DNA from: a virus
Taxonomy: Duplodnaviria > Heunggongvirae > Uroviricota > Caudoviricetes
Virus record (IMG/VR): IMGVR_UViG_2529292920_000009
DNA length: 14,218 bases
Strand: one strand, 5' to 3'
The position numbers and the translations under genes are program-made. The notes under the pieces were generated by a model. That model did not search any database. It was not told where the DNA came from and saw nothing but the letters and a program-made list of their open reading frames with translations. Shown here in pieces: positions 3-14,218 of the stretch (position 1 is its first letter; every line of letters begins with the position of its first letter).

Positions 3-1817
3 TTACATGTCTTTGAAGGCATCGCCATTTTTAATGCGCTGAAAACACATGGTGCGTCCATTACCGTTTATGTCGACGGTGTGGCGGCGTCAATGGCGTC
101 GGTCATTGCGATGGTGGGAAACCCGGTCATTATGCCGGAAAACACCTTCATGATGATTCATAAACCATTTGGCTTTACGGGCGGTGATGCGGAGGACATG
201 CGCACCTATGCCGACCTGCTCGATAAGGTTGAGGCGGTTCTGTTACCCGCTTATGCACAGAAAACCGGGAAAACCACCGATGAAATTGCTGCCATGCTGG
301 CGGATGAGACCTGGATGTCCGGTGCCGAATGTCTGGCACATGGATTTGCTGATCAGGTGACGCCAGCCGTTAAGGCAATGGCATGTATTCAGTCAAAACG
401 TACAGAGGAATTTAAAAAGATGCCGGAATCCATTCGAAACATGATTACTCCGCCACGCAACAGTGCTCCATGCGTACAGGATGATGAACCTGCAGCCTCC
501 CGGACGCCAGTGCAGGCAGCAGCACCCGTGGTGGATGAAAACAGTATCCGTGCGCAGGTACTGGCAGAGCAAAAAGCGCGTGTAAACGGTATTAATGATC
601 TGTTTGCCATGTTTGGCGGGCGTTATCAGACGCTGCAGGCTCAGTGTCTTGCCGATCCTGAATGTTCGCTGGAGCAGGCCCGCGAAAAGTTGTTGAACGA
701 GATGGGGCGCGAGTCCACGCCATCCAATAAAAATACCCCGGCTCATATTTATGCCGGTAACGGTAATTTTGTGGGGGACGGGATCCGCCAGGCGCTGATG
801 GCGCGTGCCGGATTTGAAAAAACCGAACGTGATAATGTCTACAACGGGATGACCCTGCGTGAATATGCCCGTATGTCACTGACTGAACGGGGTATTGGGG
901 TTTCCAGTTATAACCCGATGCAGATGGTCGGTGCGGCGTTCACACACAGTACGTCTGACTTCGGTAATATTCTGCTGGATGTTGCGAACAAAGCCATTCT
1001 GCAGGGCTGGGAAGATGCCCCTGAAACCTATGAACAGTGGACGCGGAAAGGTCAGTTGTCTGATTTTAAAATTGCCCATCGTGTGGGTATGGGGGGCTTC
1101 AGTGCTCTGCGTCAGGTGCGTGAAGGGGCGGAATATAAATACGTCACCACCGGAGATAAACAGGCCACTATTGCACTGGCGACCTATGGCGAGCTGTTCA
1201 GTATCACCCGTCAGGCCATTATCAATGATGATCTGAATATGCTGACCGATGTCCCGATGAAACTGGGCCGTGCGGCGAAATCCACTATTGCCGATCTGGT
1301 TTATGCCATTCTGACGTCTAACCCGAAAATCTCCACAGATAATGTAAGTCTGTTCGATAAAGCGAAACATGCAAACGTACTGGAGAGCGCTGCAATGGAC
1401 GTGGCATCGCTGGATAAAGCCCGCCAGTTGATGCGCGTTCAGAAAGAGGGGGAGCGTCATCTGAATATTCGTCCTGCGTTCGTACTGGTACCGACGGCGA
1501 TGGAGTCTGTTGCTAACCAGGTCATTCGCTCCTCAAGTGTCAAGGGGGCTGACATTAACGCCGGTATTATTAACCCGGTGAAAGATTTTGCGACCGTTAT
1601 TGCAGAGCCTCGTCTTGATGATAACAGCCAGACCACCTTCTACCTGGCTGCGTCCAAAGGCTCCGATACGATTGAAGTGGCTTATCTCAACGGTGTGGAT
1701 ACGCCATATATTGATCAGATGGAGGGCTTCAGTGTGGATGGCGTGACAACGAAAGTGCGTATTGACGCCGGTGTCGCGCCAGTTGATCACCGCGGTCTGG
1801 TGAAATGTACGGCGTAA
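3..1817 (+). CDS. Prohead protease (ClpP/S14-like) fused to major capsid protein; 5' end lies upstream of the window
   Basis: Frame 3 is open from the first base of the window to TAA at 1815-1817, so the listed ORF at 81 is an internal start. The N-terminal part carries a ClpP-like motif (GVAASMAS, then MMIHKP); the C-terminal ~400 aa has the size and position of a major capsid protein immediately upstream of head-tail genes. Family assignment is from memory of E. coli prophage protease-capsid fusions. Confidence 0.85.
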   Translation, partial: LHVFEGIAIFNALKTHGASITVYVDGVAASMASVIAMVGNPVIMPENTFMMIHKPFGFTGGDAEDMRTYADLLDKVEAVLLPAYAQKTGKTTDEIAAMLADETWMSGAECLAHGFADQVTPAVKAMACIQSKRTEEFKKMPESIRNMITPPRNSAPCVQDDEPAASRTPVQAAAPVVDENSIRAQVLAEQKARVNGINDLFAMFGGRYQTLQAQCLADPECSLEQAREKLLNEMGRESTPSNKNTPAHIYAGNGNFVGDGIRQALMARAGFEKTERDNVYNGMTLREYARMSLTERGIGVSSYNPMQMVGAAFTHSTSDFGNILLDVANKAILQGWEDAPETYEQWTRKGQLSDFKIAHRVGMGGFSALRQVREGAEYKYVTTGDKQATIALATYGELFSITRQAIINDDLNMLTDVPMKLGRAAKSTIADLVYAILTSNPKISTDNVSLFDKAKHANVLESAAMDVASLDKARQLMRVQKEGERHLNIRPAFVLVPTAMESVANQVIRSSSVKGADINAGIINPVKDFATVIAEPRLDDNSQTTFYLAASKGSDTIEVAYLNGVDTPYIDQMEGFSVDGVTTKVRIDAGVAPVDHRGLVKCTA

Positions 1818-1840
1818 ACGTCGCAGACAACAACTCTGAT

Positions 1841-1860
1841 GGCCCGTAAGGGCTTTTTTT
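1841..1860 (+). terminator. Weak terminator-like hairpin after the capsid gene (GGCCC-GTAA-GGGCT stem with GNRA loop, then T7)
   Basis: Seen directly: 4-5 bp GC stem with GTAA tetraloop at 1841-1854 followed by TTTTTTT at 1854-1860, 24 nt after the capsid stop. The stem is short, so this may only attenuate. Confidence 0.35.
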
Positions 1861-1903
1861 GTACCTGAAATCAGCCCCTGAACGGGGCTGTGCGGAGACA
1901 GTT

Positions 1904-2227
1904 ATGGCAAAGAATTTTGTAGAAGAAGGAAAAACGGTGGCGATTGTTGCCAGTGCAGCCATCAGCAGCGGAGATCTGGTGCAGGTGGGTGATGTTTTTG
2001 CGGTGGCGCTGACCGATATTCCACAGGGTGAAACAGGCGACGGCATGACCGAAGGTGTGTTTATCCTGCCTAAGCTGAAAACGGATGACATGAAAACGGG
2101 TAAGAAGGTTTATCTGAAGTCCGGAAAAGTTCAGCTGACTAACAGCGGCTCTGATCCGCTGGTCGGGGTTGTCTGGGCAGATGCCGGAACCAGTGCAGAA
2201 GAAGTGCCGGTAAAACTCAATGTCTGA
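1904..2227 (+). CDS. Small phage head protein (DUF2190-like; possible head decoration/stabilisation protein)
   Basis: ATG at 1904 is preceded by GGAG at 1894-1897 (6 nt spacing); the ORF-track start at 1859 is an upstream TTG inside the hairpin region. Product MAKNFVEEGKTVAIV... sits directly after the capsid gene. Family assignment is from memory. Confidence 0.7.
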   Translation: MAKNFVEEGKTVAIVASAAISSGDLVQVGDVFAVALTDIPQGETGDGMTEGVFILPKLKTDDMKTGKKVYLKSGKVQLTNSGSDPLVGVVWADAGTSAEEVPVKLNV

Positions 2228-2495
2228 TCCCTTTTCTCGGCTGGCAGCGCGTATGGATGCGATCACGGTCAGAAAGATGGGAAAGACAGCCTCGATTAAT
2301 GATGTCGATATGGCTGTGATCCCGGGCGAAACACTGGCAGAGCTGAATGCTCTGTCCGGACCTGCTGTCTCTCTGGTGGTGTTTTCTTTGGGATACCGCC
2401 CACGGCGCGGGGATCGCGTTGTTTATGACGGACAACATTGGACGGTCACACGGCATGAACGCTTTAACGGTAAGCCAATGATCTTTATTGAGTAA
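2220..2495 (+). CDS. Putative head-tail joining/adaptor protein (FII-like position)
   Basis: ATG at 2220 overlaps the upstream stop (ATGTCTGA), indicating translational coupling; 91 aa, located between head genes and the Z homologue. Function is inferred from position and size. Confidence 0.6.
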   Translation: MSDPFSRLAARMDAITVRKMGKTASINDVDMAVIPGETLAELNALSGPAVSLVVFSLGYRPRRGDRVVYDGQHWTVTRHERFNGKPMIFIE

Positions 2496-2506
2496 AGAGG
2501 TGTGGG

Positions 2507-3085
2507 ATGAAGGGGCTTGAGAATGCCATCCGCAATCTGAACAGCCTTGATACCCGTATGGTGCCACAGGCCAGCGCATGGGCGATAAACCGTGTGGCAC
2601 AGAAAGCGGTCTCGGTTGCCACCCGGCAGGTTGCCGGGAATACCGTTGCGGGAGATAACCAGGTGAAAGGGATACCCCTGAAACTGGTACGTCAGCGTGT
2701 CCGGGTGTTTAAAGCCAGTCCGTCAGGAAAAATGACGGCCAGGATCCGCGTCAACCGGGGCAATCTGCCCGCCATTAAGCTGGGGACAGCCCGGGTCAGA
2801 CTGGCCCGGCGTGGTGGAAAACTGCAGTACCGTGGCAGTGTGCTGAAGGTGGGTAAATATCTTTTCCGGGATGCGTTTATTCAGCAACTGGCGAATGGTC
2901 GCTGGCATGTGATGCGGCGTATTGATGGCAAAAATCGTTACCCCATTGATGTGGTGAAAATCCCGTTGTCCGGACCGCTGACACAGGCATTTGAAGATGC
3001 CCGCGACCGCATCATTGCTGCGGAAATGCCGAAACAGTTGGGTTATGCACTGAAACAACAACTGAGGTTATGGCTGACCCGATGA
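2507..3085 (+). CDS. Z: Minor tail protein Z (tail completion), lambda gpZ-like
   Basis: ATG at 2507 with AAGAGG at 2495-2500. 192 aa, the same length I recall for lambda gpZ, with a recognisable gpZ-like C-terminal region (NGRWHVMRRIDGKNRYPIDVVKIP...GYAL). Confidence 0.85.
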   Translation: MKGLENAIRNLNSLDTRMVPQASAWAINRVAQKAVSVATRQVAGNTVAGDNQVKGIPLKLVRQRVRVFKASPSGKMTARIRVNRGNLPAIKLGTARVRLARRGGKLQYRGSVLKVGKYLFRDAFIQQLANGRWHVMRRIDGKNRYPIDVVKIPLSGPLTQAFEDARDRIIAAEMPKQLGYALKQQLRLWLTR

Positions 3086-3483
3086 ACCGACATACACAAA
3101 TCCGCCAGGTCGTACTGGCACGCCTTCGGGAACAGTGTGGAGACAGCGCCACGTTTTTTGACGGGCTTCCGGCATTTGTTGATGCGCAGGAACTGCCTGC
3201 CGTGTCGGTGTGGCTGAGTGATGCTCAGTACACCGGAAAAATGACGGATGAAGATGACTGGCAGGCTGTTCTGCATATTGCTGTCTTCATCCGGGCACAA
3301 GCACCGGATTCAGAGCTGGATATGTGGATGGAGAGCACCATTTTCCCGGCCCTGAATGATGTACCGGCACTTTCCGGACTCATCGACACCCTGATCCCAC
3401 TCGGTTTTAACTATCAACGTGATAATGAGATGGCCACCTGGGCGATGGCGGAAATCACGTACCAGATCACGTACACGAATTAA
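3070..3483 (+). CDS. U: Tail terminator protein U, lambda gpU-like
   Basis: Product contains ATFFDG, PAVSVWL and a C-terminal ITYxITY region resembling lambda gpU as I recall it. Start is ambiguous: ATG 3070 (GAGG only 2 nt upstream) or ATG 3082 (aligns better with the lambda N-terminus MKHTELR). Overlaps the Z stop at 3083-3085. Confidence 0.8.
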   Translation: MADPMNRHTQIRQVVLARLREQCGDSATFFDGLPAFVDAQELPAVSVWLSDAQYTGKMTDEDDWQAVLHIAVFIRAQAPDSELDMWMESTIFPALNDVPALSGLIDTLIPLGFNYQRDNEMATWAMAEITYQITYTN

Positions 3484-3493
3484 GGAGGTGGTA

Positions 3494-4237
3494 ATGACCA
3501 CACCAAATCCACTGGCAAAAACGAAAGGTGCGGGAACGACGTTCTGGATGTATACCGGCAACGGCGACGCATTTGCGAACCCTTTGTCGGACACTGACTG
3601 GCTGCGTCTTGCGATGGTGAAGGATCTGCAACCTGGCGAAATGACCGCTGATGCAGAAGATGACACTTATCTCGATGATGAAGATGCAGACTGGAAAACG
3701 ACAACCCAGGGGCAGAAATCCGTTGGTGATACTTCGGCGACGCTGGCCTGGCGTCCGGGTGACAGCGGGCAGAAAAAACTGGTTCAGTTGTTCGACTCCG
3801 GTGAAGTCTGCGCGTTTCGTATCAAATATCCCAACGGCACTGTTGATGTTTTCCGTGGCTGGCTGAGCTCACTGGGTAAAACCATTGCCTCAAAAGACGT
3901 GATGACCCGCACAGTGAAAATCAGCGGTGTGGGGCGTCCGTATCTGGCAGAGGAGGGCACTGAAACTGTGGGCGTTACCGGGCTGACGGTGGCACCGGCA
4001 TCTGCCAGTGTAAAAGTGGGAGCAACCACCACGCTGACCTTTACAGTAAAACCTGACGGAGCCAGTGACAAAGCGATCAGTGTGCATTCGACAGATCCAC
4101 AGACTGCCACGGTGACCCTGAACGGGCTTGTGGCCACGGTGAAAGGCGTGAAGCAGGGCAGTGTCAGCATTGTGGGCATGACTTCTGACGGCGATTTTGT
4201 GGCAGTGGCTGCGGTGGCTGTCAGCGCCGCAGGTTAA
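3494..4237 (+). CDS. V: Major tail protein V with C-terminal Ig-like (Big_2-type) domain, lambda gpV-like
   Basis: Strong SD AAGGAGGT at 3482-3489 and ATG at 3494; the ORF-track start at 3419 is upstream and overlaps U. N-terminus MTTPNPLAKTKGAGTTFWMY...NPLSD...DLQPGEMTA...YLDDEDADW matches lambda gpV from memory; the C-terminal ~90 aa is an Ig-like segment. Confidence 0.9.
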   Translation: MTTPNPLAKTKGAGTTFWMYTGNGDAFANPLSDTDWLRLAMVKDLQPGEMTADAEDDTYLDDEDADWKTTTQGQKSVGDTSATLAWRPGDSGQKKLVQLFDSGEVCAFRIKYPNGTVDVFRGWLSSLGKTIASKDVMTRTVKISGVGRPYLAEEGTETVGVTGLTVAPASASVKVGATTTLTFTVKPDGASDKAISVHSTDPQTATVTLNGLVATVKGVKQGSVSIVGMTSDGDFVAVAAVAVSAAG

Positions 4238-4257
4238 CAGGACGATACTCATCATTT

Positions 4258-4282
4258 GCCCCGGTTATCCGGGGCTTTTTTT
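4258..4282 (+). terminator. Rho-independent terminator or attenuator between V and G
   Basis: Seen directly: perfect 7-bp GC stem GCCCCGG (4258-4264), loop TTAT, CCGGGGC (4269-4275), then TTTTTTT (4276-4282), 20 nt after the V stop. Confidence 0.55.
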
Positions 4283-4294
4283 CAGGTGGAGAAC

Positions 4295-4684
4295 ATGATG
4301 TTTCTGAAACAGGGCACGTTTAATTATGAAAAGCAGTCCGTGGTGCTCAGTGAGCTGTCCGGGCTGCAGAGAATTGAATATCTGGCGTTTGTTCAGCAGC
4401 GAACGGCAAAGTTTGATGCCGAAGAGGGAGAACTGCCGGAGGCTGAACGACAGATTGCTTTTCTGCGGATGGGGATGGATATCAATGCCTGGCTGGTTTC
4501 CCGCTCACAGTGGAATGCGGATCAGTCTAAGGATGTAGAGACGCTTTGCGCATCCGTTATTACAACATGGTCGTATGATGCCCTGGGTGCGGGGGCGGAG
4601 ATGGTTCTGTCGCTGAGCGGTATGGGGACCATTGATAATGCCGGGGATGATGAGCATGAGGCGCTGACGCCGGAAAAGTCCTGA
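4295..4684 (+). CDS. G: Tail assembly chaperone G, lambda gpG-like
   Basis: Tandem ATG at 4295/4298 with GGTGGAG at 4285-4291; MFLK...VLSELSGLQRIEYLAF resembles the lambda gpG N-terminus (MFLK...TLSELSALQRIEHLA, from memory). Stop TGA at 4682-4684. Confidence 0.85.
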   Translation: MMFLKQGTFNYEKQSVVLSELSGLQRIEYLAFVQQRTAKFDAEEGELPEAERQIAFLRMGMDINAWLVSRSQWNADQSKDVETLCASVITTWSYDALGAGAEMVLSLSGMGTIDNAGDDEHEALTPEKS

Positions 4685-5022
4685 CGCGGGAAATGCAGTT
4701 TGTCATGCGGCTTGCCCGGGAGTTCCGGCGGGCAGACTGGCGGCGGATGCTGTCGGAAATGTCGGCCACTGAGCTTGGTGAGTGGGGCGATTATTTCCGG
4801 ATGCAGAGCTTCAGTGATGTGTGGATGGATGCGCAGTTTGCCTCGCTGAAGGCATTGATCGTGAGAATGGTGTCCGGCAGCAGTGATGCTGCGGTGGCTG
4901 ATTTCAGCCTTTTACCGGAAGAGAACGGGATACCGGAGCGAACGGACGAAGAACTGATGCATCTTGGGGAAGGTATTTCCGGAGGTGTGCGTTATGGACC
5001 AGATAGCCAACCTGGTCATTGA
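4672..5022 (+). CDS. T: T portion of the tail assembly chaperone G-T fusion, expected to be made by -1 programmed frameshift from G
   Basis: The -1 frame relative to G is open from 4660 (upstream TGA at 4657-4659) to TGA at 5020-5022 and overlaps the last codons of G (GAA AAG TCC TGA). This is the conserved lambdoid G/G-T arrangement; the exact slip point is inferred. Confidence 0.7.
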   Translation, partial: GKVLTREMQFVMRLAREFRRADWRRMLSEMSATELGEWGDYFRMQSFSDVWMDAQFASLKALIVRMVSGSSDAAVADFSLLPEENGIPERTDEELMHLGEGISGGVRYGPDSQPGH

Positions 5023-5647
5023 TTTGGGGATTGATGCGGCAGAGTTTAAAAATGAAATCCCCCGTATCAAAAACCTTCTGAATGGTGCAGCCAGCGATGC
5101 AGAACGGTCTTCTGCCCGTATGCAGCGTTTTATGGAGCGTCAGACTCAGGCCGCCCGGCAGACAACGCAGGCGGCTTCTTCGGCTGCAACAGCCGCATCC
5201 GTCCATGCGCAGACGGTGGAGAAGAACGCACAGGCTCATGAACGCATGGCCCGCGAGGTGGAGAAAACCCGCCAGCGCATGGAGGCGCTGAGCCAGAAAA
5301 TGCGCGAGGAACAGGCGCAGGCCATGGCTCTGGCGGAGGCTCAGGATAAAGCGGCTGCTGCGTTTTATCGTCAGATTGACAGTGTGAAACAGGCCAGTGC
5401 GGGGCTGCAGGAATTACAGCGTATTCAGCAGCAGATCCGACAGGCCAGAAACAGTGGCGGGATTGGTCAGCAGGATTATCTGGCGCTGATTTCTGAGGTT
5501 ACGGCGAAAACCCGTGTTCTTACACAGGCTGAGGAAGAGGGTACCCGACAGAAAGTGGCGTTTATCCGTCAGCTTAAAGAGCAGGCAACCCGCCAGAATC
5601 TTTCATCTTCTGAGTTGCTTCGTGCTAAGGCTGCCCAGCTGGGGTAA
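4994..5647 (+). CDS. H: Tape-measure protein H, N-terminal fragment (ends at in-frame TAA)
   Basis: ATG at 4994 with GGAGG at 4980-4984; overlaps the end of T by 29 nt. I preferred this start over the upstream ATG at 4964 because of the SD and the lambda-like N-terminus. Confidence 0.75.
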   Translation: MDQIANLVIDLGIDAAEFKNEIPRIKNLLNGAASDAERSSARMQRFMERQTQAARQTTQAASSAATAASVHAQTVEKNAQAHERMAREVEKTRQRMEALSQKMREEQAQAMALAEAQDKAAAAFYRQIDSVKQASAGLQELQRIQQQIRQARNSGGIGQQDYLALISEVTAKTRVLTQAEEEGTRQKVAFIRQLKEQATRQNLSSSELLRAKAAQLG

Positions 5648-5650
5648 GCA

Positions 5651-6673
5651 GTGCTGCAGAAGTGTATATCCGCAAAAATGGAGCAGGCAGGAAAAGCCAC
5701 GCATTCGCTGGGTCTGAAAAGTGCAGCGGCCCGCCAGGAGATAGGCGTTCTGATAGGTGAACTGGCCCGCGGCAATTTAGGGGCGCTGAGGGGATCCGGG
5801 ATAACGCTGGCTAACCGTGCCGGATGGATAGACACACTGATGTCACCGAAAGGCATGATGCTGGGCGGGGTTATTGGCGGTATTGCCGCAGCTGTCTATG
5901 GTCTGGGTAAAGCCTGGTATGACGGTCAGAAGGAGGGGGAAGAATTTAACCGCCAGCTGTCGCTGACGGGGCATTATGCCGGAGTCACTGCCGGGCAGCT
6001 GTGGACGCTCAGTCGTGCTATTTCCGGGAATGGTATCACGCAACATGCTGCAGCCGGTGCGCTGGCTCAGGTGGTGGGGAGTGGTGCATTTCGTGGAAAC
6101 GATATCGGTATGGTGGCGAGAGCTGCCGCACAGATGGAGCGATCGGTTGGCCAGTCGGTCAGCGATACCATAAGTCAGTTTAAGCGGCTGAAGGATGATC
6201 CTGTAAATGCCGCGAAGGCTCTGGACAATGAGCTGCATTTTCTTACTGCCACTCAGCTTGAGCAGATACGCGTCCTTGGGGAACAGGGGCGGTCCAGTGA
6301 TGCGGCACGGATAGCCATGTCTGCACTGGCAGAGGAAACCGGTCGGCGTACTGCGGATATTGATAATAACCTCAATGCGCTGGGCAGTACGCTGAAGTAT
6401 CTGTCTGATTTATGGAGTCGTTTCTGGGATGCGGCCATGAATATTGGTCGTGAAGACTCGCTGGATGAACAGATTTCCGCTTTACAGGAGAAAGTGTCGC
6501 GGGCGAAAAGACTCCCCTGGACGGCATCATCCTCTCAGGTTGAGTACGATCAGCAGCGTCTTAACGAGCTTCAGGAAAAAAACGCCAGAAGGATTTGCAG
6601 GATGCAAAAGAGCAGGCAGAGCGGAATTATCAGGAGCAACAGAAACGCCGTAATGCTGAAAATGCTGCACTGA
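5651..6673 (+). CDS. H: Tape-measure protein H, middle fragment (same frame as the N-terminal fragment)
   Basis: Reading frame resumes one codon after the TAA (GTG at 5651); it contains a hydrophobic Gly-rich segment (GMMLGGVIGGIAAAVYGLG) typical of tape-measure proteins; the frame is lost at the A7 tract near 6576-6582. Confidence 0.7.
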   Translation: MLQKCISAKMEQAGKATHSLGLKSAAARQEIGVLIGELARGNLGALRGSGITLANRAGWIDTLMSPKGMMLGGVIGGIAAAVYGLGKAWYDGQKEGEEFNRQLSLTGHYAGVTAGQLWTLSRAISGNGITQHAAAGALAQVVGSGAFRGNDIGMVARAAAQMERSVGQSVSDTISQFKRLKDDPVNAAKALDNELHFLTATQLEQIRVLGEQGRSSDAARIAMSALAEETGRRTADIDNNLNALGSTLKYLSDLWSRFWDAAMNIGREDSLDEQISALQEKVSRAKRLPWTASSSQVEYDQQRLNELQEKNARRICRMQKSRQSGIIRSNRNAVMLKMLH

Positions 6674-8049
6674 ACCGGATGAATGAAACGGAAGCAGCAC
6701 GACATCAGCGTGAAATTGCGCGTATTAATGCCATGCAGTACGCCGATCAGACTGTCAGGGATGCGGCGATACAACGTGAAAATGAACGTTACGAGAAAGC
6801 CCTGGCATCCGGTAAGAAAAAAACACGCGAAACCCGTAATGATGAGGCCACCCGGTTATTGCTGCAGTACAGTCAGCAACAGGCACAGGTGGAAGGACAG
6901 ATTGCTGCTGCCAGACAGTCAGCAGGCATTGCCACGGAAAGGATGACAGAAGCGCATAAACAGCTTCTGGCTCTGCAGCAGCGCATCAGCGACCTGGACG
7001 GGAAAAAACTGACGGCAGATGAAAAGAGTGTGCTGGCCCGTAAAGATGAACTGATTCTGGCACTGACGCTGCTGGATGTAAAACAGCAGGAGCTTCAGAA
7101 ACAGACGGCACTCAACGAGCTGAAGAAAAAAACAATTCAGCTGACCAGTCAACTGGCTGAAGAAGAGCGTGCTCAGCGTCAACAACATAATCTGGATATC
7201 GCCACGGTGGGTATGGGTGATCAGCAGCGGCAGCGATATCAGGTACAACTGAGTCTTCGTCAGAAATACCAGCAACAGCTGGAGCAGTTGAGGCGGGATA
7301 GTGAGCAGAAAGGGACATATAACACGGATGACTACAGAAAGGCCGAGCAGGCGCTGACGGAGAGCCTGAACCGACAACTGAATGAGAATCGCCGTTACTG
7401 GCAACAGCTTGAAATTGCTCAGGGTAACTGGAAAAACGGAGTCCTGCGTGCACTCCAGAATGTCACTGAGAATGCGGATAACACAGCCTGGACAGTGGAA
7501 CAGTTGTTCACGTCTGCGTTCAGTAGCATGAGTGACTGGCTGGCGACATTCTGTACTACAGGCAAACTCAATTTCAAATCTTTTACTTCTTCTGTGCTGT
7601 CAGATATGTCCAGAATCATGGCTCAGATAGCTTTAATGAAAGCGGTAAAAGGCATTGCTTCCGCGCTGCCTTTTGATTTTGTAGCCAATGCTGATGGCGG
7701 TGTTTATCAGTCGGCTGATTTGAGTCGCTACAGTGGCACGGTGGTTAACCGTCCGACGTTTTTTGCTTTTGCAAAAGGCGCGGGTGTGATGGGGGAAGCG
7801 GGACCTGAAGCCATTCTGCCATTGCGTCGTGGTGCTGACGGTAAGCTGGGGGGTGTGGCGGATATTGGGGGTTCAGGTATGGCGATGTTTTCCCCGCAGT
7901 ACAACATCGAGATCAATAACGATGGCACGAACGGGCAGATAGGTCCGGCTGCCCTGAAGGCGGTTTATGACCTCGGGAAAAAAGCGGCAGCGGACTTTAT
8001 GCAACAGCAGGCCCGTGATGGTGGTCGGTTAAGTGGAGCATATCGGTAA
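6595..8049 (+). CDS. H: Tape-measure protein H, C-terminal fragment (-1 frame)
   Basis: This frame is open from 6565; the ORF-track start at 6595 is a TTG. Gln/Glu/Arg-rich coiled-coil-like sequence ending in the conserved gpH C-terminus; stop TAA at 8047-8049 overlaps the M start (TAATG). Confidence 0.75.
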   Translation: MQDAKEQAERNYQEQQKRRNAENAALNRMNETEAARHQREIARINAMQYADQTVRDAAIQRENERYEKALASGKKKTRETRNDEATRLLLQYSQQQAQVEGQIAAARQSAGIATERMTEAHKQLLALQQRISDLDGKKLTADEKSVLARKDELILALTLLDVKQQELQKQTALNELKKKTIQLTSQLAEEERAQRQQHNLDIATVGMGDQQRQRYQVQLSLRQKYQQQLEQLRRDSEQKGTYNTDDYRKAEQALTESLNRQLNENRRYWQQLEIAQGNWKNGVLRALQNVTENADNTAWTVEQLFTSAFSSMSDWLATFCTTGKLNFKSFTSSVLSDMSRIMAQIALMKAVKGIASALPFDFVANADGGVYQSADLSRYSGTVVNRPTFFAFAKGAGVMGEAGPEAILPLRRGADGKLGGVADIGGSGMAMFSPQYNIEINNDGTNGQIGPAALKAVYDLGKKAAADFMQQQARDGGRLSGAYR

Positions 8050-8378
8050 TGGAGACGTTTCACTGGAAAGTGCGCCCGGATATGAATGTGGTATCAGAGC
8101 CGAAAGTGGTGACAGTGAAGCTGGGCGATGGTTATGAACAGCGTCGTGCGGCGGGACTGAATAACCAGTTGTCGACTTACAGCGTGACGATACGTGTTCG
8201 TAAATGTGAACACCCATCTTTAAAAGCCTTTCTGGAACGGCACGGTGGCGTCCGCGCATTTCAGTGGACGCCACCTTATGACTGGAAACCGATTAGGGTG
8301 GTTTGTCGTAAATGGTCGGCAAGCGTGGGGGCGCTGTGGGTAACCATAACGGCAGATTTTGAACAGGTCGTGGCATAG
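8049..8378 (+). CDS. M: Minor tail protein M, lambda gpM-like
   Basis: 109 aa; METFHWKVRPDM...GDGYEQR...LNNQLSTYSV...WTPPYDWK...FEQVV matches lambda gpM from memory; start overlaps the H stop. Confidence 0.9.
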   Translation: METFHWKVRPDMNVVSEPKVVTVKLGDGYEQRRAAGLNNQLSTYSVTIRVRKCEHPSLKAFLERHGGVRAFQWTPPYDWKPIRVVCRKWSASVGALWVTITADFEQVVA

Positions 8379-8387
8379 GAGGCTCTG

Positions 8388-9086
8388 ATGCAGGATATTC
8401 CACAGGAAACACATCATGAGACGACACGCCTCACTCAGTCAGCCCAGGTGGTGCTCTGGGAAATCGATCTGACAGAGGTCGGTGGTGAACGTTATTTTTT
8501 CTGTAATGAGCAGAACGAAAAAGGTGAGCCGGTTACCTGGCAGGGGCGGCAGTATCAGGCATACCCCATTCAGGGGACAGGATTTGAACTGAACGGCAAG
8601 GGCAGTGCTGCCCGTCCGACACTGACGGTTTCTAACCTGCACGGCATGGTCACGGGGATGGCGGAAGACCTGCAGAGTCTGGTCGGCGGAACGGTGGTCA
8701 GGCGTAAGGTTTACGCCCGTTTTCTGGATGCGGTGAACTTCGTCAACGGAAACAGCGACGCCGATCCGGAGCAGGAGGTGATCAGCCGCTGGCGCATCGA
8801 GCAGTGCAGCGAACTGAGTGCGGTCAGTGCCTCCTTTGTACTGTCCACGCCGACGGAAACGGATGGTGCTGTTTTTCCGGGGCGTATCATGCTGGCCAAC
8901 ACCTGCACCTGGACCTATCGCGGTGATGAGTGTGGTTATCACGGTCCGGCTGTCGCGGATGAATATGACCAGCCGACGTCCGATATCACGAAGGATAAAT
9001 GCAGCAAATGCCTGAGCGGCTGTAAGTTTCGCAATAACGTCGGCAACTTTGGCGGCTTCCTTTCCATTAACAAACTTTCGCAGTAA
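8388..9086 (+). CDS. L: Minor tail protein L, lambda gpL-like
   Basis: 232 aa; ATG at 8388 with GGAG at 8377-8380. Sequence (VVLWEIDLTEVGGERYFFCNEQNEKGEPVTWQGRQYQ...CSKCLSGCKFRNNVGNFGGF) is almost identical to lambda gpL as I recall it, including the C-terminal Cys cluster. Confidence 0.95.
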   Translation: MQDIPQETHHETTRLTQSAQVVLWEIDLTEVGGERYFFCNEQNEKGEPVTWQGRQYQAYPIQGTGFELNGKGSAARPTLTVSNLHGMVTGMAEDLQSLVGGTVVRRKVYARFLDAVNFVNGNSDADPEQEVISRWRIEQCSELSAVSASFVLSTPTETDGAVFPGRIMLANTCTWTYRGDECGYHGPAVADEYDQPTSDITKDKCSKCLSGCKFRNNVGNFGGFLSINKLSQ

Positions 9087-9090
9087 TCCC

Positions 9091-9834
9091 ATGACACAGA
9101 CAGAATCAGAGATTCTGGCGCACGCCCGGCGATGTGCGCCAGCGGAGTCGTGCGGCTTCGTGGTAAGCACGCCGGAGGGGGAAAGATATTTCCCCTGCGT
9201 GAATATCTCCGGTGAGCCGGAGGCGTATTTCCGTATGTCGCCGGAAGACTGGCTGCAGGCAGAAATGCAGGGTGAGGTGGTGGCGCTGGTCCACAGCCAC
9301 CCCGCTGGTCTGCCCTGGCTGAGTGAGGCCGACCGGCGGCTGCAGGTGCAGAGTGATTTGCCGTGGTGGCTGGTCTGCCGGGGGACAATTCATAAGTTCC
9401 GCTGTGTGCCGCATCTCACCGGGCGGCGCTTTGAGCACGGGGTGACGGACTGTTACACGCTGTTCCGGGATGCTTATCATCTGGCGGGGATTGAGATGCC
9501 GGATTTTCATCGCGAGGATGACTGGTGGCGTCACGGCCAGAATCTCTATCTGGATAATCTGGAGGCAACGGGGCTGTATCAGGTGCCGTTGTCAGCGGCG
9601 CAGCCGGGCGATGTGCTGCTGTGCTGTTTTGGTTCATCGGTGCCGAATCATGCCGCCATTTACTGCGGCGACGGCGAGCTGCTGCACCATATTCCTGAAC
9701 AACTGAGTAAACGAGAGAGGTACACCGACAAATGGCAGCGACGCACACACTCCCTCTGGCGTCACCGGGCATGGCACGCATCTGCCTTTACGGGGATTTA
9801 CAACGATTTGGCCGCCGCATCGACCTTCGTGTAA
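9091..9834 (+). CDS. K: Tail tip assembly protein K, lambda gpK-like, with JAMM/MPN and NlpC/P60-type motifs
   Basis: ATG at 9091, 5 nt after the L stop; N-terminus MTQTESEILAHARRCAP. An exact HxHx7Sx2D JAMM motif (HSHPAGLPWLSEAD) is encoded at 9292-9333, followed by a Cys (GVTDCYTLF) and His (PNHAAIYCGDG) pair characteristic of an NlpC/P60-type domain. Confidence 0.9.
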   Translation: MTQTESEILAHARRCAPAESCGFVVSTPEGERYFPCVNISGEPEAYFRMSPEDWLQAEMQGEVVALVHSHPAGLPWLSEADRRLQVQSDLPWWLVCRGTIHKFRCVPHLTGRRFEHGVTDCYTLFRDAYHLAGIEMPDFHREDDWWRHGQNLYLDNLEATGLYQVPLSAAQPGDVLLCCFGSSVPNHAAIYCGDGELLHHIPEQLSKRERYTDKWQRRTHSLWRHRAWHASAFTGIYNDLAAASTFV

Positions 9835-10379
9835 AAACGGGGGCTGAAGCCATCCGGGCGTTGTCCACACAGCTCCCGGCGTTTCGTCAGAAACTGAATG
9901 ACGGCTGGTATCAGGTGCGCATTGCCGGGCGTGATGCAGGTGAAACCGAATTATCTGCCCGTCTTAATGAGCCGCTGGCAAATGGTGCCGTGATCCACAT
10001 CGTGCCGCATCTGGCGGGAGCTAAAAGTGGCGGTGTGTTTCAGGTGGTGCTGGGGGCGGCGCTGATTGCGGTGGCATGGTGGAACCCTGTGGGCTGGCTG
10101 GGTGCCGCGGCTGTATCGGGCATGTATGCGGCAGGGGCCAGTATGATCCTGGGTGGTGTGGCCCAGATGCTGGCACCGAAAGCCCGGACGCCCACAGCGA
10201 CCAGCACGGATAACGGTAAGCAGAACACCTATTTCTCATCACTGGATAACATGGTTGCCCAGGGCAATGTTCTGCCTGTTCTGTACGGTGAAATGCGCGT
10301 GGGGTCTCGTGTGGTTTCTCAGGAGATCAGCACGGCAGATGAAGGGGACGGTGGTCAGGTTGTGGTGATTGGCCGCTGA
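9732..10379 (+). CDS. I: Tail tip assembly protein I, lambda gpI-like
   Basis: MAATHTLPLASPGMARICLYGDLQRFGRRIDLRV... and the C-terminus NVLPVLYGEMRVGSRVVSQEISTADEGDGG resemble lambda gpI from memory; the start overlaps the 3' end of K by 103 nt, as K and I do in lambda. Confidence 0.9.
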   Translation: MAATHTLPLASPGMARICLYGDLQRFGRRIDLRVKTGAEAIRALSTQLPAFRQKLNDGWYQVRIAGRDAGETELSARLNEPLANGAVIHIVPHLAGAKSGGVFQVVLGAALIAVAWWNPVGWLGAAAVSGMYAAGASMILGGVAQMLAPKARTPTATSTDNGKQNTYFSSLDNMVAQGNVLPVLYGEMRVGSRVVSQEISTADEGDGGQVVVIGR

Positions 10380-10397
10380 TGCAAAATATTTCATGTG

Positions 10398-10425
10398 AAA
10401 CCGCCTCCGGGCGGTTTTGTCGTTT
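10398..10425 (+). promoter_or_regulatory. Hairpin between I and J (8-bp stem AAACCGCC/GGCGGTTT, loop TCCG) with a T-rich tail; possible attenuator or RNA processing site
   Basis: Seen directly at 10398-10417, followed by TGTCGTTT; lies 19 nt after the I stop and just before the J Shine-Dalgarno (GGAG at 10428-10431). Confidence 0.35.
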
Positions 10426-10439
10426 ATGGAGCATAACGA

Positions 10440-12407
10440 ATGGGCAAAGGAAGCAGTAAGGGGCATACCCCGCGCGAAGCGAAGGACAACCTGAAGTCCA
10501 CGCAACTGCTGAGTGTGATTGATGCCATCAGCGAAGGGCCGATTGAAGGTCCGGTGGATGGATTAAAAAGCGTGCTGCTGAACAGTACGCCGGTGCTGGA
10601 CAGTGAAGGTAATACCAACATCTCCGGTGTCACGGTGGTGTTCCGGGCCGGTGAGCAGGAGCAGACACCGCCGGAGGGATTTGAATCCTCCGGCTCTGAG
10701 ACGGTGCTGGGTACGGAAGTGAAATACGACACGCCGATCACCCGCACCATCACGTCGGCAAACATCGATCGTCTGCGCTTTACTTTCGGTGTGCAGGCAC
10801 TGGTGGAAACCACCTCTAAGGGGGACCGGAATCCGTCGGAAGTCCGCCTGCTGGTTCAGATACAGCGTAACGGTGGCTGGGTGACGGAAAAAGACATCAC
10901 CATTAAAGGCAAAACCACCTCACAGTATCTGGCATCGGTGGTGGTGGGTAACCTGCCGCCGCGCCCGTTCAATATCCGGATGCGCAGGATGACGCCGGAC
11001 AGCACCACAGACCAGCTGCAGAACAAAACGCTCTGGTCGTCATACACCGAAATCATCGATGTGAAACAGTGCTACCCGAACACGGCACTGGTCGGCGTAC
11101 AGGTGGATTCGGAGCAGTTCGGCAGCCAGCAGGTGAGCCGTAATTATCATCTGCGCGGGCGTATTCTGCAGGTGCCGTCGAACTATAACCCGCAGACGCG
11201 GCAATACAGCGGTATCTGGGACGGAACGTTTAAGCCAGCATACAGCAATAACATGGCCTGGTGTCTGTGGGATATGCTGACCCATCCACGCTACGGCATG
11301 GGGAAACGTCTTGGTGCGGCGGATGTGGACAAATGGGCGCTGTATGTCATCGGCCAGTACTGCGACCAGTCAGTGCCGGACGGCTTTGGCGGCACGGAGC
11401 CGCGCATCACCTGTAATGCGTACCTGACCACACAGCGCAAGGCGTGGGATGTGCTCAGTGATTTCTGCTCGGCGATGCGCTGTATGCCGGTATGGAACGG
11501 GCAGACGCTGACGTTCGTGCAGGACCGACCGTCGGATAAGGTGTGGACCTATAACCGCAGTAATGTGGTGATGCCGGATGATGGCGCGCCGTTCCGCTAC
11601 AGCTTCAGCGCCCTGAAAGACCGCCATAATGCCGTTGAGGTGAACTGGATTGACCCGAACAACGGCTGGGAGACGGCGACAGAGCTTGTGGAGGATACGC
11701 AGGCCATTGCCCGTTACGGTCGTAACGTCACGAAGATGGATGCTTTTGGCTGTACCAGCCGGGGGCAGGCACACCGCGCCGGGCTGTGGCTGATTAAAAC
11801 AGAACTGCTGGAAACGCAGACCGTGGACTTCAGCGTGGGCGCAGAAGGGCTTCGCCATGTGCCGGGCGATGTCATTGAAATCTGTGATGATGACTATGCC
11901 GGTATCAGCATCGGCGGGCGCGTGCTGGCGGTAAACAGCCAGACCCGGACGCTGACGCTCGACCGTGAAATCACGCTGCCATCCTCCGGTACCACGCTGA
12001 TAAGCCAGGTTGACGGAAGTGGCAATCCGGTCAGCGTGGAGGTTCAGTCCGTCACCGACGGCGTGAAGGTAAAAGTGAGCCGTGTTCCTGACGGTGTTGC
12101 CGGATACAGCGTATGGGGGCTGAAGCTGCCGACGCTGCGCCAGCGACTGTTCCGCTGCGTGAGTATCCGTGAGAACGACGACGGCACGTATGCCATCACC
12201 GCCGTGCAGCATGTGCCGGAAAAAGAGGCCATCGTGGATAACGGGGCGCACTTTGACGGCGAACAGAGTGGCACGGTGAACGGTGTCACGCCGCCAGCAG
12301 TGCAGCACCTGACCGCAGAAGTCACCGCAGACAGCGGGGAATACCAGGTGCTGGCGCGCTGGGACACGCCGAAGGTGGTGAAGGGGGGAGCTTTATGCTT
12401 CGCCTGA
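10440..12407 (+). CDS. J: Host-specificity protein J, N-terminal fragment
   Basis: ATG at 10440 with GGAG at 10428-10431; [54 protein letters not shown]... matches lambda J; the frame ends 7 codons after the G6 tract. Confidence 0.85.
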
Positions 12408-13810
12408 CCGTGGCAGCGGATGACGGCAGTGAGCGGCTGGTCAGCACGGCCCGGACGACGGAAACCACATACCGCTTCAGGCAGCTGGCGTTGGGGCGTT
12501 ACACGCTGACAGTCCGGGCGGTAAATGCCCGGGGACAGCAGGGCGATCCGGCGTCGGTATCGTTCCGGATTGCCGCACCGGCAGCGCCGTCACAGATTGA
12601 GCTGACGCCGGGCTATTTTCAGATCACCGCCACGCCGCATCTTGCGGTTTATGATCCGACGGTACAGTTTGAGTTCTGGTTTTCGGAAAAGCGGATTACC
12701 GATATCAGGCAGGTTGAAACCAGCGCGCGCTATCTTGGCACGGGGATGTACTGGATAGCCGCCAGTATCAATATCAAACCGGGCCATGATTATTACTTTT
12801 ATATCCGCAGTGTGAACACCGTTGGCAAATCGGCATTCGTGGAGGCTGTCGGTCAGGCGAGCGATGATGCGGAAGGTTACCTGGATTTTTTCAAAGGCCA
12901 GATAACCGAATCCCATCTCGGCAAGGAGCTGCTGGAAAAAGTCGAGCTGACGGAGGATAACGCCAGCAAACTGGAGGAGTTTTCGAAAGAGTGGCAGGAC
13001 GCTAACGATAAGTGGAATGCCATGTGGGGCGTCAAAATTGAGCAGACCAAAGACGGCAAACATTATGTCGCGGGTATTGGCCTCAGCATGGAGGACACGG
13101 AAGAAGGCAAGCTGAGCCAGTTTCTGGTTGCCGCTAACCGTATCGCGTTTATTGACCCGGCAAACGGGAATGAAACGCCGATGTTTGTGGCGCAGGGCAA
13201 TCAGATATTTATGAACGACGTGTTCCTGAAGCGCCTGACGGCCCCGACCATTACCAGTGGTGGAAATCCACCGGCATTTTCCCTGACATCAGACGGAAAG
13301 CTGACCGCTAAAAATGCGGATATCAGTGGTAGAGTGAATGCGAACGCCGGGACGCTCAACAATGTCACGGTAAATGAAAACTGTACGATTAAGGGCATGC
13401 TGGAGGCGACTCAGGTCAGAGGTGACTTCGTTAAAGCTGTATCCAAATCATTTCCGAAACAGGCTGGTACGTGGGGTAACACGGAAACACCAAACGGGAC
13501 GGTTACAGTCACCATCAGCGATGATCATAACTTTGACCGTCAAATCATTATTCCGCCCATTATCTTTAACGGAATAGCGTATAGCTATCCGGGAAGTGGT
13601 AATAACCCGGGAGGTACAAGTTACACGGGTTATGGTTTCGAAGTTCGCAAAAACGGTGTATTAATCGCATCCAGAGAAACTAAAGGGGCCATTCCCGGTA
13701 GTTACAGTGCGGTTATTGATATGCCGAGTGGCAGGGGAGCGTCACTCTGGAGTTTAAGGTTTTCCATAAAGGCAATCAGTGGGCAGGTAATATCACCGAC
13801 TGTACGGTGA
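12395..13810 (+). CDS. J: Host-specificity protein J, C-terminal fragment (-1 frame relative to the N-terminal fragment)
   Basis: Continues the J sequence ([28 protein letters not shown]..., fibronectin-III-like region); the last ~150 aa look diverged from lambda and are more AT-rich; the frame ends at TGA 13808-13810 after the G4 tract. Confidence 0.8.
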
Positions 13811-13872
13811 TTGTGACCAAAAAAGCCGCTTCCGGCATCAGTATTCGTTGAAATTGTTATAACCCATATAAG

Positions 13873-13899
13873 GGCACCAAAAATGGTGCCTATTTTATT
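13873..13899 (+). terminator. Rho-independent terminator downstream of J
   Basis: Seen directly: 7-bp stem GGCACCA (13873-13879), loop AAAA, TGGTGCC (13884-13890), then TATTTTATT (13891-13899). Confidence 0.6.
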
Positions 13900-14013
13900 G
13901 CAGAAAAGCGAGAGGTAATTATGCGTAAAGGTAACCGGCTCATTTAAACCGTCTGGTCTGTTTCCTCCGGCTCTACAAAAATAATGTCCATCATTTTTAA
14001 TGGACACTATCGT

Positions 14014-14218
14014 ATGAAACACCGGACCTGGATCACTGAAGCTTTACGTCTTCACTTTGAAGAACATTTACCCCGGGTTGTGGCCGGGCGTCGCCTGGGT
14101 GTACCAAAATCAACAGTTTGTAGTATGTTCGTGCGCTTTCGGAGAGCTGGCCTTTCGTGGCCTTTGCCCGCAGGCATGTCGGAGCAGGAACTTGATGCCT
14201 GCCTTTACGGACAATTTT
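14014..14218 (+). CDS. HTH-domain ORF, 3' end beyond the window; possibly the N-terminus of an IS transposase (family not determined)
   Basis: ATG at 14014 opens a frame that runs to the window edge (68 codons). It encodes a helix-turn-helix-like segment (GRRLGVPKSTVCSMFVRFRRAGL) of the kind seen at transposase N-termini. There is no clear SD, and a 7-bp inverted repeat lies immediately upstream (13985-14006). Confidence 0.4.
   Translation, partial: MKHRTWITEALRLHFEEHLPRVVAGRRLGVPKSTVCSMFVRFRRAGLSWPLPAGMSEQELDACLYGQF

Follow-up and report, generated by a model that had tools for sequence, protein, structure and literature searches.

The tail module of a lambdoid prophage in the Escherichia coli DEC1E draft genome contains two long genes, the tape-measure gene H and the tip attachment (host specificity) gene J, and both are broken in the sequence as assembled. 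The stretch of DNA analyzed here, referred to as the window, is the whole of contig AIEZ01000007.1 (14,218 bp; assembly GCA_000249135.2), one of the drafts of the 'DECA' diarrheagenic E. coli collection (accessions AIEV-AIEZ) that were published in 2012. On its plus strand, it carries a head-tail module of the lambda/cdtI type that begins inside a capsid gene and ends inside an insertion sequence (IS) of the IS66 family (Table 1). The lengths of Z, U, V, G, T, M, L, K, and I equal those found in intact relatives, as the initial annotation had stated for the shorter tail genes. The locus tags of the three broken protein fragments fall within ECDEC1E_0974 to _0982. H and J together make up 47% of the sequence, and the fact that all five lesions described below fall within them is only weakly non-random (0.47^5 = 0.022).

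Table 1 Features of the head-tail module in the window and the sites at which H, J, and lom are interrupted
Feature	Position	Strand	Remark
ClpP-protease/capsid fusion gene, 3' part only		+	First in the module
Decoration protein gene and FII-like gene		+	After the capsid fusion gene
Z, U, V, G, T, H, M, L, K, I, J		+	Tail gene order; followed by 9 nucleotides of lom and the left end of the IS66-family element
H, tape-measure gene, lambda gpH type	4994..8049	+	Three pieces as assembled
G4 run, -1 indel	5641..5644	+	G5 in 11/11 covering loci
TAA stop	5645..5647	+	Same bases within GGG GTA AGC in relatives
A5 run, +1 indel	5674..5678	+	A4 in all relatives
A7 run, -1 indel	6576..6582	+	A8 in closest relatives, GA6 in more distant ones
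J, tip attachment/host specificity gene	10440..13851	+	Three pieces
G6 run, -1 frameshift	12383..12388	+	Inherited, EPEC1 (O127:H6/O55:H6) prophage lineage
GGGGA, -1 indel, one A lost	13734..13738	+	GGGGAA in relatives with the same C-terminal allele
lom, first 9 nucleotides, ATGCGTAAA	13922..13930	+	Match to 55989 stops 9 nucleotides into the annotated lom
IS66-family element, left end	13931..14218	+	Contig ends inside

We examined each site by alignment to 13 related loci, with 11-13 of them covering each of the sites that proved to be private to the window. The relatives include the prophage of E2348/69 (L001), three assemblies of O55:H6-type relatives from outside the DEC project (L006, an NCTC-type assembly; L010, the ADUL01 draft, of 2362-75 type; and L015), and two assemblies from the same project as DEC1E, namely DEC1A (L011) and DEC2B (L014). 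H occupies the position of the lambda-type tape-measure gene, directly past the G/T chaperones and ahead of M-L-K-I-J, with the open reading frame (ORF) of T overlapping its start. In the deposited sequence, it does not form the single ORF of a gpH but is split into three pieces (4994-5647, 5648/5678-6673, and 6583/6679-8049) by three single-base insertions or deletions (indels), which are probably artefacts. Without these indels, H is an ORF of 1018 amino acids (aa), covered over its full length by the Pfam families TMP_2 (168 bits), TMP_4 (60 bits), and Tape_meas_lam_C (78 bits), all above the curated cut-offs; the same families are also matched by the three fragments. The H region is 99.8% identical both to phage cdtI, in which the 3057-nucleotide (nt) H is intact, and to the E2348/69 prophage. 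For the window as a whole, the best match in a complete E. coli genome is 97.9%, and the module is a mosaic. As a control set, we took ten unrelated loci encoding the M protein of the window from an unspecific look-up of that protein (51,521 blocks), and among these H is intact in 10/10 and J in 9/10.

At the first H site, all relatives read CTGGGGGTAAGC...CGCAAAATGG, i.e., CAG CTG GGG GTA AGC ... CGC AAA ATG. The window has lost one base of the G5 run and, 33-34 nt further on, gained one base in the A4 run, such that the frame downstream of the pair is the same as that upstream. The TAA stop is in frame because of the upstream G5>G4 loss. A point nonsense mutation at this position, as implied by the initial annotation, which had described a simple in-frame TAA, is ruled out, the triplet being read only in the 33-nt shifted stretch between the -1 and the +1 indel. 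Because the TAA arises from this pair, H contains three indels and the module five lesions rather than the four originally counted. The positions that the initial annotation gave for the TAA, the A7 and G6 runs, and the last G4 run (13734-13737) are nevertheless correct, and its division of both H and J into three segments is borne out by the ORFs. The third H indel lies in the A7 run, where 13/13 loci, including those of DEC1A and DEC2B, have one base more; in a homopolymer census, A8 would be the longest homopolymer of the window. As a separate observation, the A7 state places A AAA AAC in the incoming frame at 6574-6582, a heptamer of the classical -1 slippery type. As judged from the alignment, this heptamer is probably meaningless, since it is not conserved and the relatives have an in-frame A8 or GA6 instead.

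J is likewise split into three pieces (10440-12407, 12395-13810, and 13738-13851), and here it is the G6 frameshift that prevents a single gpJ ORF. When repaired, J is an ORF of 1137 aa with all six expected domains above their cut-offs (FNIII-A_GpJ, Phage-tail_3, Ig_J, Ig_J_second, Phage_Tail_Tip, and Ig_GpJ_C). The G6 state, GAAGGGGGGAGC, is identical in the finished genome of E2348/69, where RefSeq annotates J as 'frameshifted', and it is also found in L006, L010, and L011; the J fragment of L006 is common to DEC1C and two NCTC-type records. Altogether, the G6 state is present in seven other assemblies, four of which are complete genomes of the E2348/69 lineage. With a 101-nt probe over the site, 4 of 4,295 matching records are 100% identical, all of them complete O127:H6 genomes of the E2348/69 lineage, and among the matches listed, the other records have one base more. 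Most relatives read GGGGGTG or GGGCGTG at this position, and L013 alone has G7, the in-frame allele. An in-frame allele that is one unit longer thus exists for the tract in J (G7 in L013) as well as for the tract in H (A8 in the closest relatives). Since the G6 frameshift recurs in several assemblies but stays within a single clonal lineage, it is inherited and real; on this comparative evidence, J is a true pseudogene. At the last site, by contrast, the base that was lost belongs to an AA pair and not to a G5 run, because the relatives with the same C-terminal allele (L002, L003, L004, L008, L009, and L014) read GGGGAAGC.

The pattern of lesion sharing that we observe separates the G6 frameshift from the other four indels. 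Recurrence of the same lesion in independent assemblies, as expected of a slipped-strand pseudogene, is seen for G6 only, whereas G4, A5, A7, and GGGGA are absent from all 11-13 loci covering each site, including L015, L006, and L010. With a probe spanning G4 and A5, the window state was absent from all complete genomes, the best of 1,833 matching records being 98.2% identical. The A7 probe found none at 100% among 1,823 records (343 are at 99.0% over a 102-nt span). For the probe over the 13737 site, the best of 1,077 matching records is 98.0% identical over a 102-nt span, again without a complete genome in the window state. In a collection of ~15 billion proteins, each of the three broken fragments was encoded by a single contig. 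Three of the private changes lie in runs (G5>G4, A4>A5, and A8>A7) and the fourth (AA>A) beside a G4 run, and each is private to one assembly, as expected of homopolymer errors. Over positions 7-8800, the window differs from L015 by three indels and four substitutions (at 341, 359, 6532, and 7058). The last of these is a private nonsynonymous change in H, with CTG (Leu) in the window against CAG (Gln) in all 13 relatives; among the window-private substitutions, the others that we checked (6532, 8849, 10817, and 13639) are synonymous.

An excess of indels is observed not only in DEC1E but across assemblies of the same project, as expected of error. Over 5.6 kb, DEC1A differs from L015 by two substitutions and two private indels (G4>G3 and an inserted A), and it has a third private indel in J (TT>T). 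DEC2B differs from L015 by seven substitutions and two private indels (TT>T and G>GG), and two more, likewise private, lie in A-runs further downstream. None of the indels in these two drafts is at a site affected in the window. Among well-sequenced members of the lineage, E2348/69 and L006 differ by 36 substitutions and two indels, L006 and L010 by three substitutions and one indel, and L006 and L015 by eight substitutions and no indels. The pooled ratio is therefore 3 indels to 47 substitutions, and each of these three indels is corroborated by other assemblies, although for E2348/69 the latter are re-assemblies of the same strain. Compared with L015, the three DEC drafts have a combined 7 indels to 13 substitutions (Fisher test against 3:47, p = 0.004), and the window alone has 3 to 4 (p = 0.02). 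By our own tally, the DEC drafts contain 11 uncorroborated private indels in ~40 kb, compared with three in ~190 kb of the other assemblies, where each is present in further assemblies, in part of the same strain. From these tallied counts, the number of private indels per kb is ~17 times higher in the DEC drafts (p ~1e-6). The excess points to the pipeline, because no such difference in true indel rate would be expected among strains of one clone.

One recurring arrangement stands out among the private indels. A -1 change in a G-run followed by an added A 34 nt away occurs both in H of the window (5641-5678) and in K of DEC1A (L011 3740-3774; the G4>G3 and inserted A mentioned above). In both cases, a stop codon lies in between, so no function is regained. 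The probability of such proximity by chance is ~0.05 for the window and 0.014 for DEC1A. The common order and spacing of the two pairs fit an artefact of the consensus pipeline better than biology.

A further interruption affects lom, of which only the start precedes the IS66-family element; the insertion, 9 nt past the ATG, has displaced the remainder. The part of the element that lies in the window is 100% identical to L006 13930-14217, and the L006 element encodes HTH_Tnp_1, TnpB_IS66, and DDE_Tnp_IS66 products. In L006 (a DEC1C/NCTC-type strain), the identical IS end sits inside J, and since it lies in lom in the window, the insertion site of the element varies among related strains or prophages. 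The stretch that separates the stop of J from the start of lom contains, at 13872-13891, a hairpin resembling a terminator, GGGCACC-AAAA-ATGGTGCCT, with a T-rich tail behind it.

Taken together, our data favor a mixture of true decay and assembly noise, in the defective prophage module of the EPEC1 strain DEC1E. The G6 frameshift is real and inherited, while base-calling or consensus errors of the 2012 draft most probably account for the remaining four indels; we hold this combined reading with good, though not full, confidence. In J, GGGGGTG would first have become G7 by substitution, and G7 would then have been shortened to G6 by slippage. This last step would have taken place in the ancestor of the O127:H6/O55:H6 EPEC1 clone and been inherited since. 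The frameshift truncates the tip protein past residue ~650 and leaves the phage with no functional tail tip, and the IS66-family insertion in lom is the second real lesion. The G5>G4, A4>A5, and A8>A7 changes in H and the AA>A change in J are, in this proposal, errors of the homopolymer-length miscall kind, possibly worsened by the repetition of the region among co-resident prophages. The real H would then be an intact ORF of 1018 aa and the real J would carry the G6 frameshift only. That the four private indels are probably artefacts follows from their restriction to one draft together with the batch effect in the sister DEC drafts. The DEC drafts were reportedly produced in much the same way as other 454/Celera drafts from the same sequencing centre. 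The centre's E. coli drafts of that year were based on 454 Titanium reads and Celera 6.0 assembly (PMC3491183).

Several points weigh against this combined reading. The assignment of four indels to error is a probabilistic call made by comparing assemblies rather than reads, and genuine decay through single-base indels is known from this prophage lineage, namely in H and J of E2348/69 and in M of L010. Because a dead J would have left H free to decay, some of the lesions private to DEC1E could be real. Neither the repaired H (1018 aa) nor the repaired J (1137 aa, in its KGVS and KGGS repairs) has a verbatim copy among 15 billion proteins. The window also has private substitutions that are real, and its K allele is unique. 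We infer the 454-type platform of DEC1E itself from the drafts of the same centre. Errors in G5, A4, and AA are less typical of a high-coverage 454 consensus than errors in runs of at least seven.

These points lead to the foremost alternative, that all five lesions are real and that, after G6 had killed J, the DEC1E prophage gained four strain-private slipped-strand indels. Real private 1-bp indels are found in this module in sister lineages. E2348/69 has its own 1-bp indel in H (delA, aligned to window position 7105) and a second indel in an A-run of J. In L010, an A4>A5 change at 8490 (aligned to window 8221) cuts M to 77 aa and must be real, because the same 77-aa product is found on four contigs, one of 5.18 Mb. 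Slippage is favored in homopolymers, to which three of the four private sites belong, and the IS66-family insertion in lom indicates that the element is genuinely decaying. Nevertheless, we consider this account unlikely. It leaves the ratio of 3 indels to 4 substitutions separating the window from its nearest relative to be explained against ~1:15 in well-sequenced relatives, and it would require that the sister DEC drafts each acquired private indels of their own, some outside homopolymers, while L006, L010, and L015 carry 0-1. Nor does the -1/+1 pair in H restore function; since the TAA lies between its two indels, selection cannot explain the pairing.

A more far-reaching version appears to us very improbable. 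Here, none of the five lesions would be an error, and homopolymer slippage would be disabling the two largest tail genes of an effector-carrying prophage independently, and at unusual speed, in different EPEC1 strains. If it were true, E2348/69, L010, DEC1A, DEC1E, and DEC2B would each have different private frameshifts, and this would imply either selection for 'grounding' the prophage while keeping its NleG/NleB/NleC/NleD cargo, located downstream in the relatives, or a locally raised rate of slippage.

Mis-assembly offers a different route to artefacts. In this variant of the artefact explanation, the assembly would have merged reads from two or more near-identical co-resident prophages into a single consensus, and the private indels would not stem mainly from the platform. 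The contig is indeed only 14.2 kb long with both ends in repeated sequence (the capsid gene and IS66), the module has a median of three matching places per E. coli genome, and both the K protein and the DNA of the K region are unique. The 247-aa K protein was not found elsewhere among ~15 billion proteins, occurring on this contig only. The divergence in K, however, is confined to one clean ~0.9-kb tract of a different allele (8840-9723, the end of L and most of K), whose surroundings are identical to L006/L015. This tract partially matches the L016/L017 alleles (best match 97.9% among 14,784 genomic places) and contains no site-by-site mixture, such that it looks like natural recombination, probably a patch from an unsampled prophage. 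The H indels, moreover, lack the accompanying substitutions that mixed diverged copies would give. A collapse of this kind is thus very improbable.

That all lesions including G6 are sequencing artefacts, with an intact and functional tail module, is scarcely believable. G6 is a homopolymer and G7 does restore the frame, but the same G6 is present in a finished genome, in its re-assemblies, in the NCTC-type assembly, and in other drafts, all within one clonal lineage, and lom is interrupted by the IS element as well. We give next to no weight to recoding or phase variation, i.e., a -1 ribosomal frameshift or transcriptional slippage at A7 and a G6/G7 switch in J: the A AAA AAC heptamer and the existence of both G6 and G7 alleles might suggest it, but the relatives are in frame straight through the A tract (as A8 or GA6) with no conserved frameshift site, the TAA upstream of A7 already ends H in the window, and the tract in J is G6 without exception in the seven other EPEC1-type assemblies examined (four of the E2348/69 lineage), so that both a programmed frameshift and a phase-variable tract are rejected.

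The choice between sequencer error and true decay with which the initial annotation had left the locus is therefore not exclusive. Decay holds for the inherited G6 frameshift and error probably holds for the four private indels, as the comparison with homologues across each junction that it had suggested makes apparent, with G6 shared by relatives and G4, A5, A7, and GGGGA found in none. Its corollary that artefacts would imply a probably functional tail module does not hold. With a real frameshift in J and the IS66-family element in lom, the tail module is defective whichever origin the private indels have. In itself, the finding is ordinary, consisting of known prophage decay, already annotated in a sister strain, plus draft-assembly noise, and involves no new biology. 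Its practical meaning is that pseudogene calls in DEC1E and in sister drafts of the DEC collection should not be taken at face value. About four in five of the 'frameshifts' in this module are probably assembly noise, even though the prophage is truly defective, and drafts of the 2012 era would inflate counts of prophage decay and of tail-gene pseudogenes as well as estimates of homopolymer mutation rates.

Two further observations concern the surroundings of the broken genes. The G gene ends at 4672-4684 with ...CCG GAA AAG TCC TGA, where a -1 slip on GGAAAAG would move the ribosome from G into the frame of the T ORF (4693-5022), in agreement with the conserved programmed frameshift of the G/G-T tail chaperones of lambda-like phages. 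Past the tail fibre genes, the related prophages L007, L011, and L006 encode NleG, NleB/SseK, an NleC-like Peptidase_M85, and an NleD-like Peptidase_M91, and the module belongs to this effector-carrying family of lambdoid prophages.

The private indels resemble the homopolymer miscalls of 454-type drafts in being single-base changes in or beside mononucleotide runs, private to one assembly and at different sites in each draft of the same project. They differ in that some DEC-private indels lie in runs of 1-2 bases, which is atypical for a high-coverage consensus, and a 454-type platform is only presumed for DEC1E. Compared with lambda, H and J have the Pfam domain sets of gpH and gpJ, the same position in the tail operon, and the same upstream G/T chaperone pair with an A-rich slip site, although the DNA match to lambda H extends over only 61 nt and H of the window has 1018 aa against 853 aa in lambda, as annotated in its record. 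The sequenced lambdoid phage cdtI (Enterobacteria phage cdtI, NC_009514) has the same gene order and 98.7% identity over the module up to mid-J. It differs in that H and J (3498 nt) are both intact, and at the five lesion sites it reads G5, A4, A8, GGGCGTG, and GGGGAAGC. The E2348/69 prophage (NC_011601.1, 1.066-1.083 Mb) has the same head-tail module and the same G6 in J, with its small tail genes intact and both H and J annotated as 'frameshifted' pseudogenes. However, it has G5, A4, and A8 at the three sites at which H of the window is broken, its own loss in H is the delA in CAGACGG (L001 9206), which lies outside a homopolymer, its J has another C-terminal allele with a second frameshift, A7>A6 (L001 15173), and its lom is intact. 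Beyond the inherited lesion in J, the same prophage is independently decaying in E2348/69.

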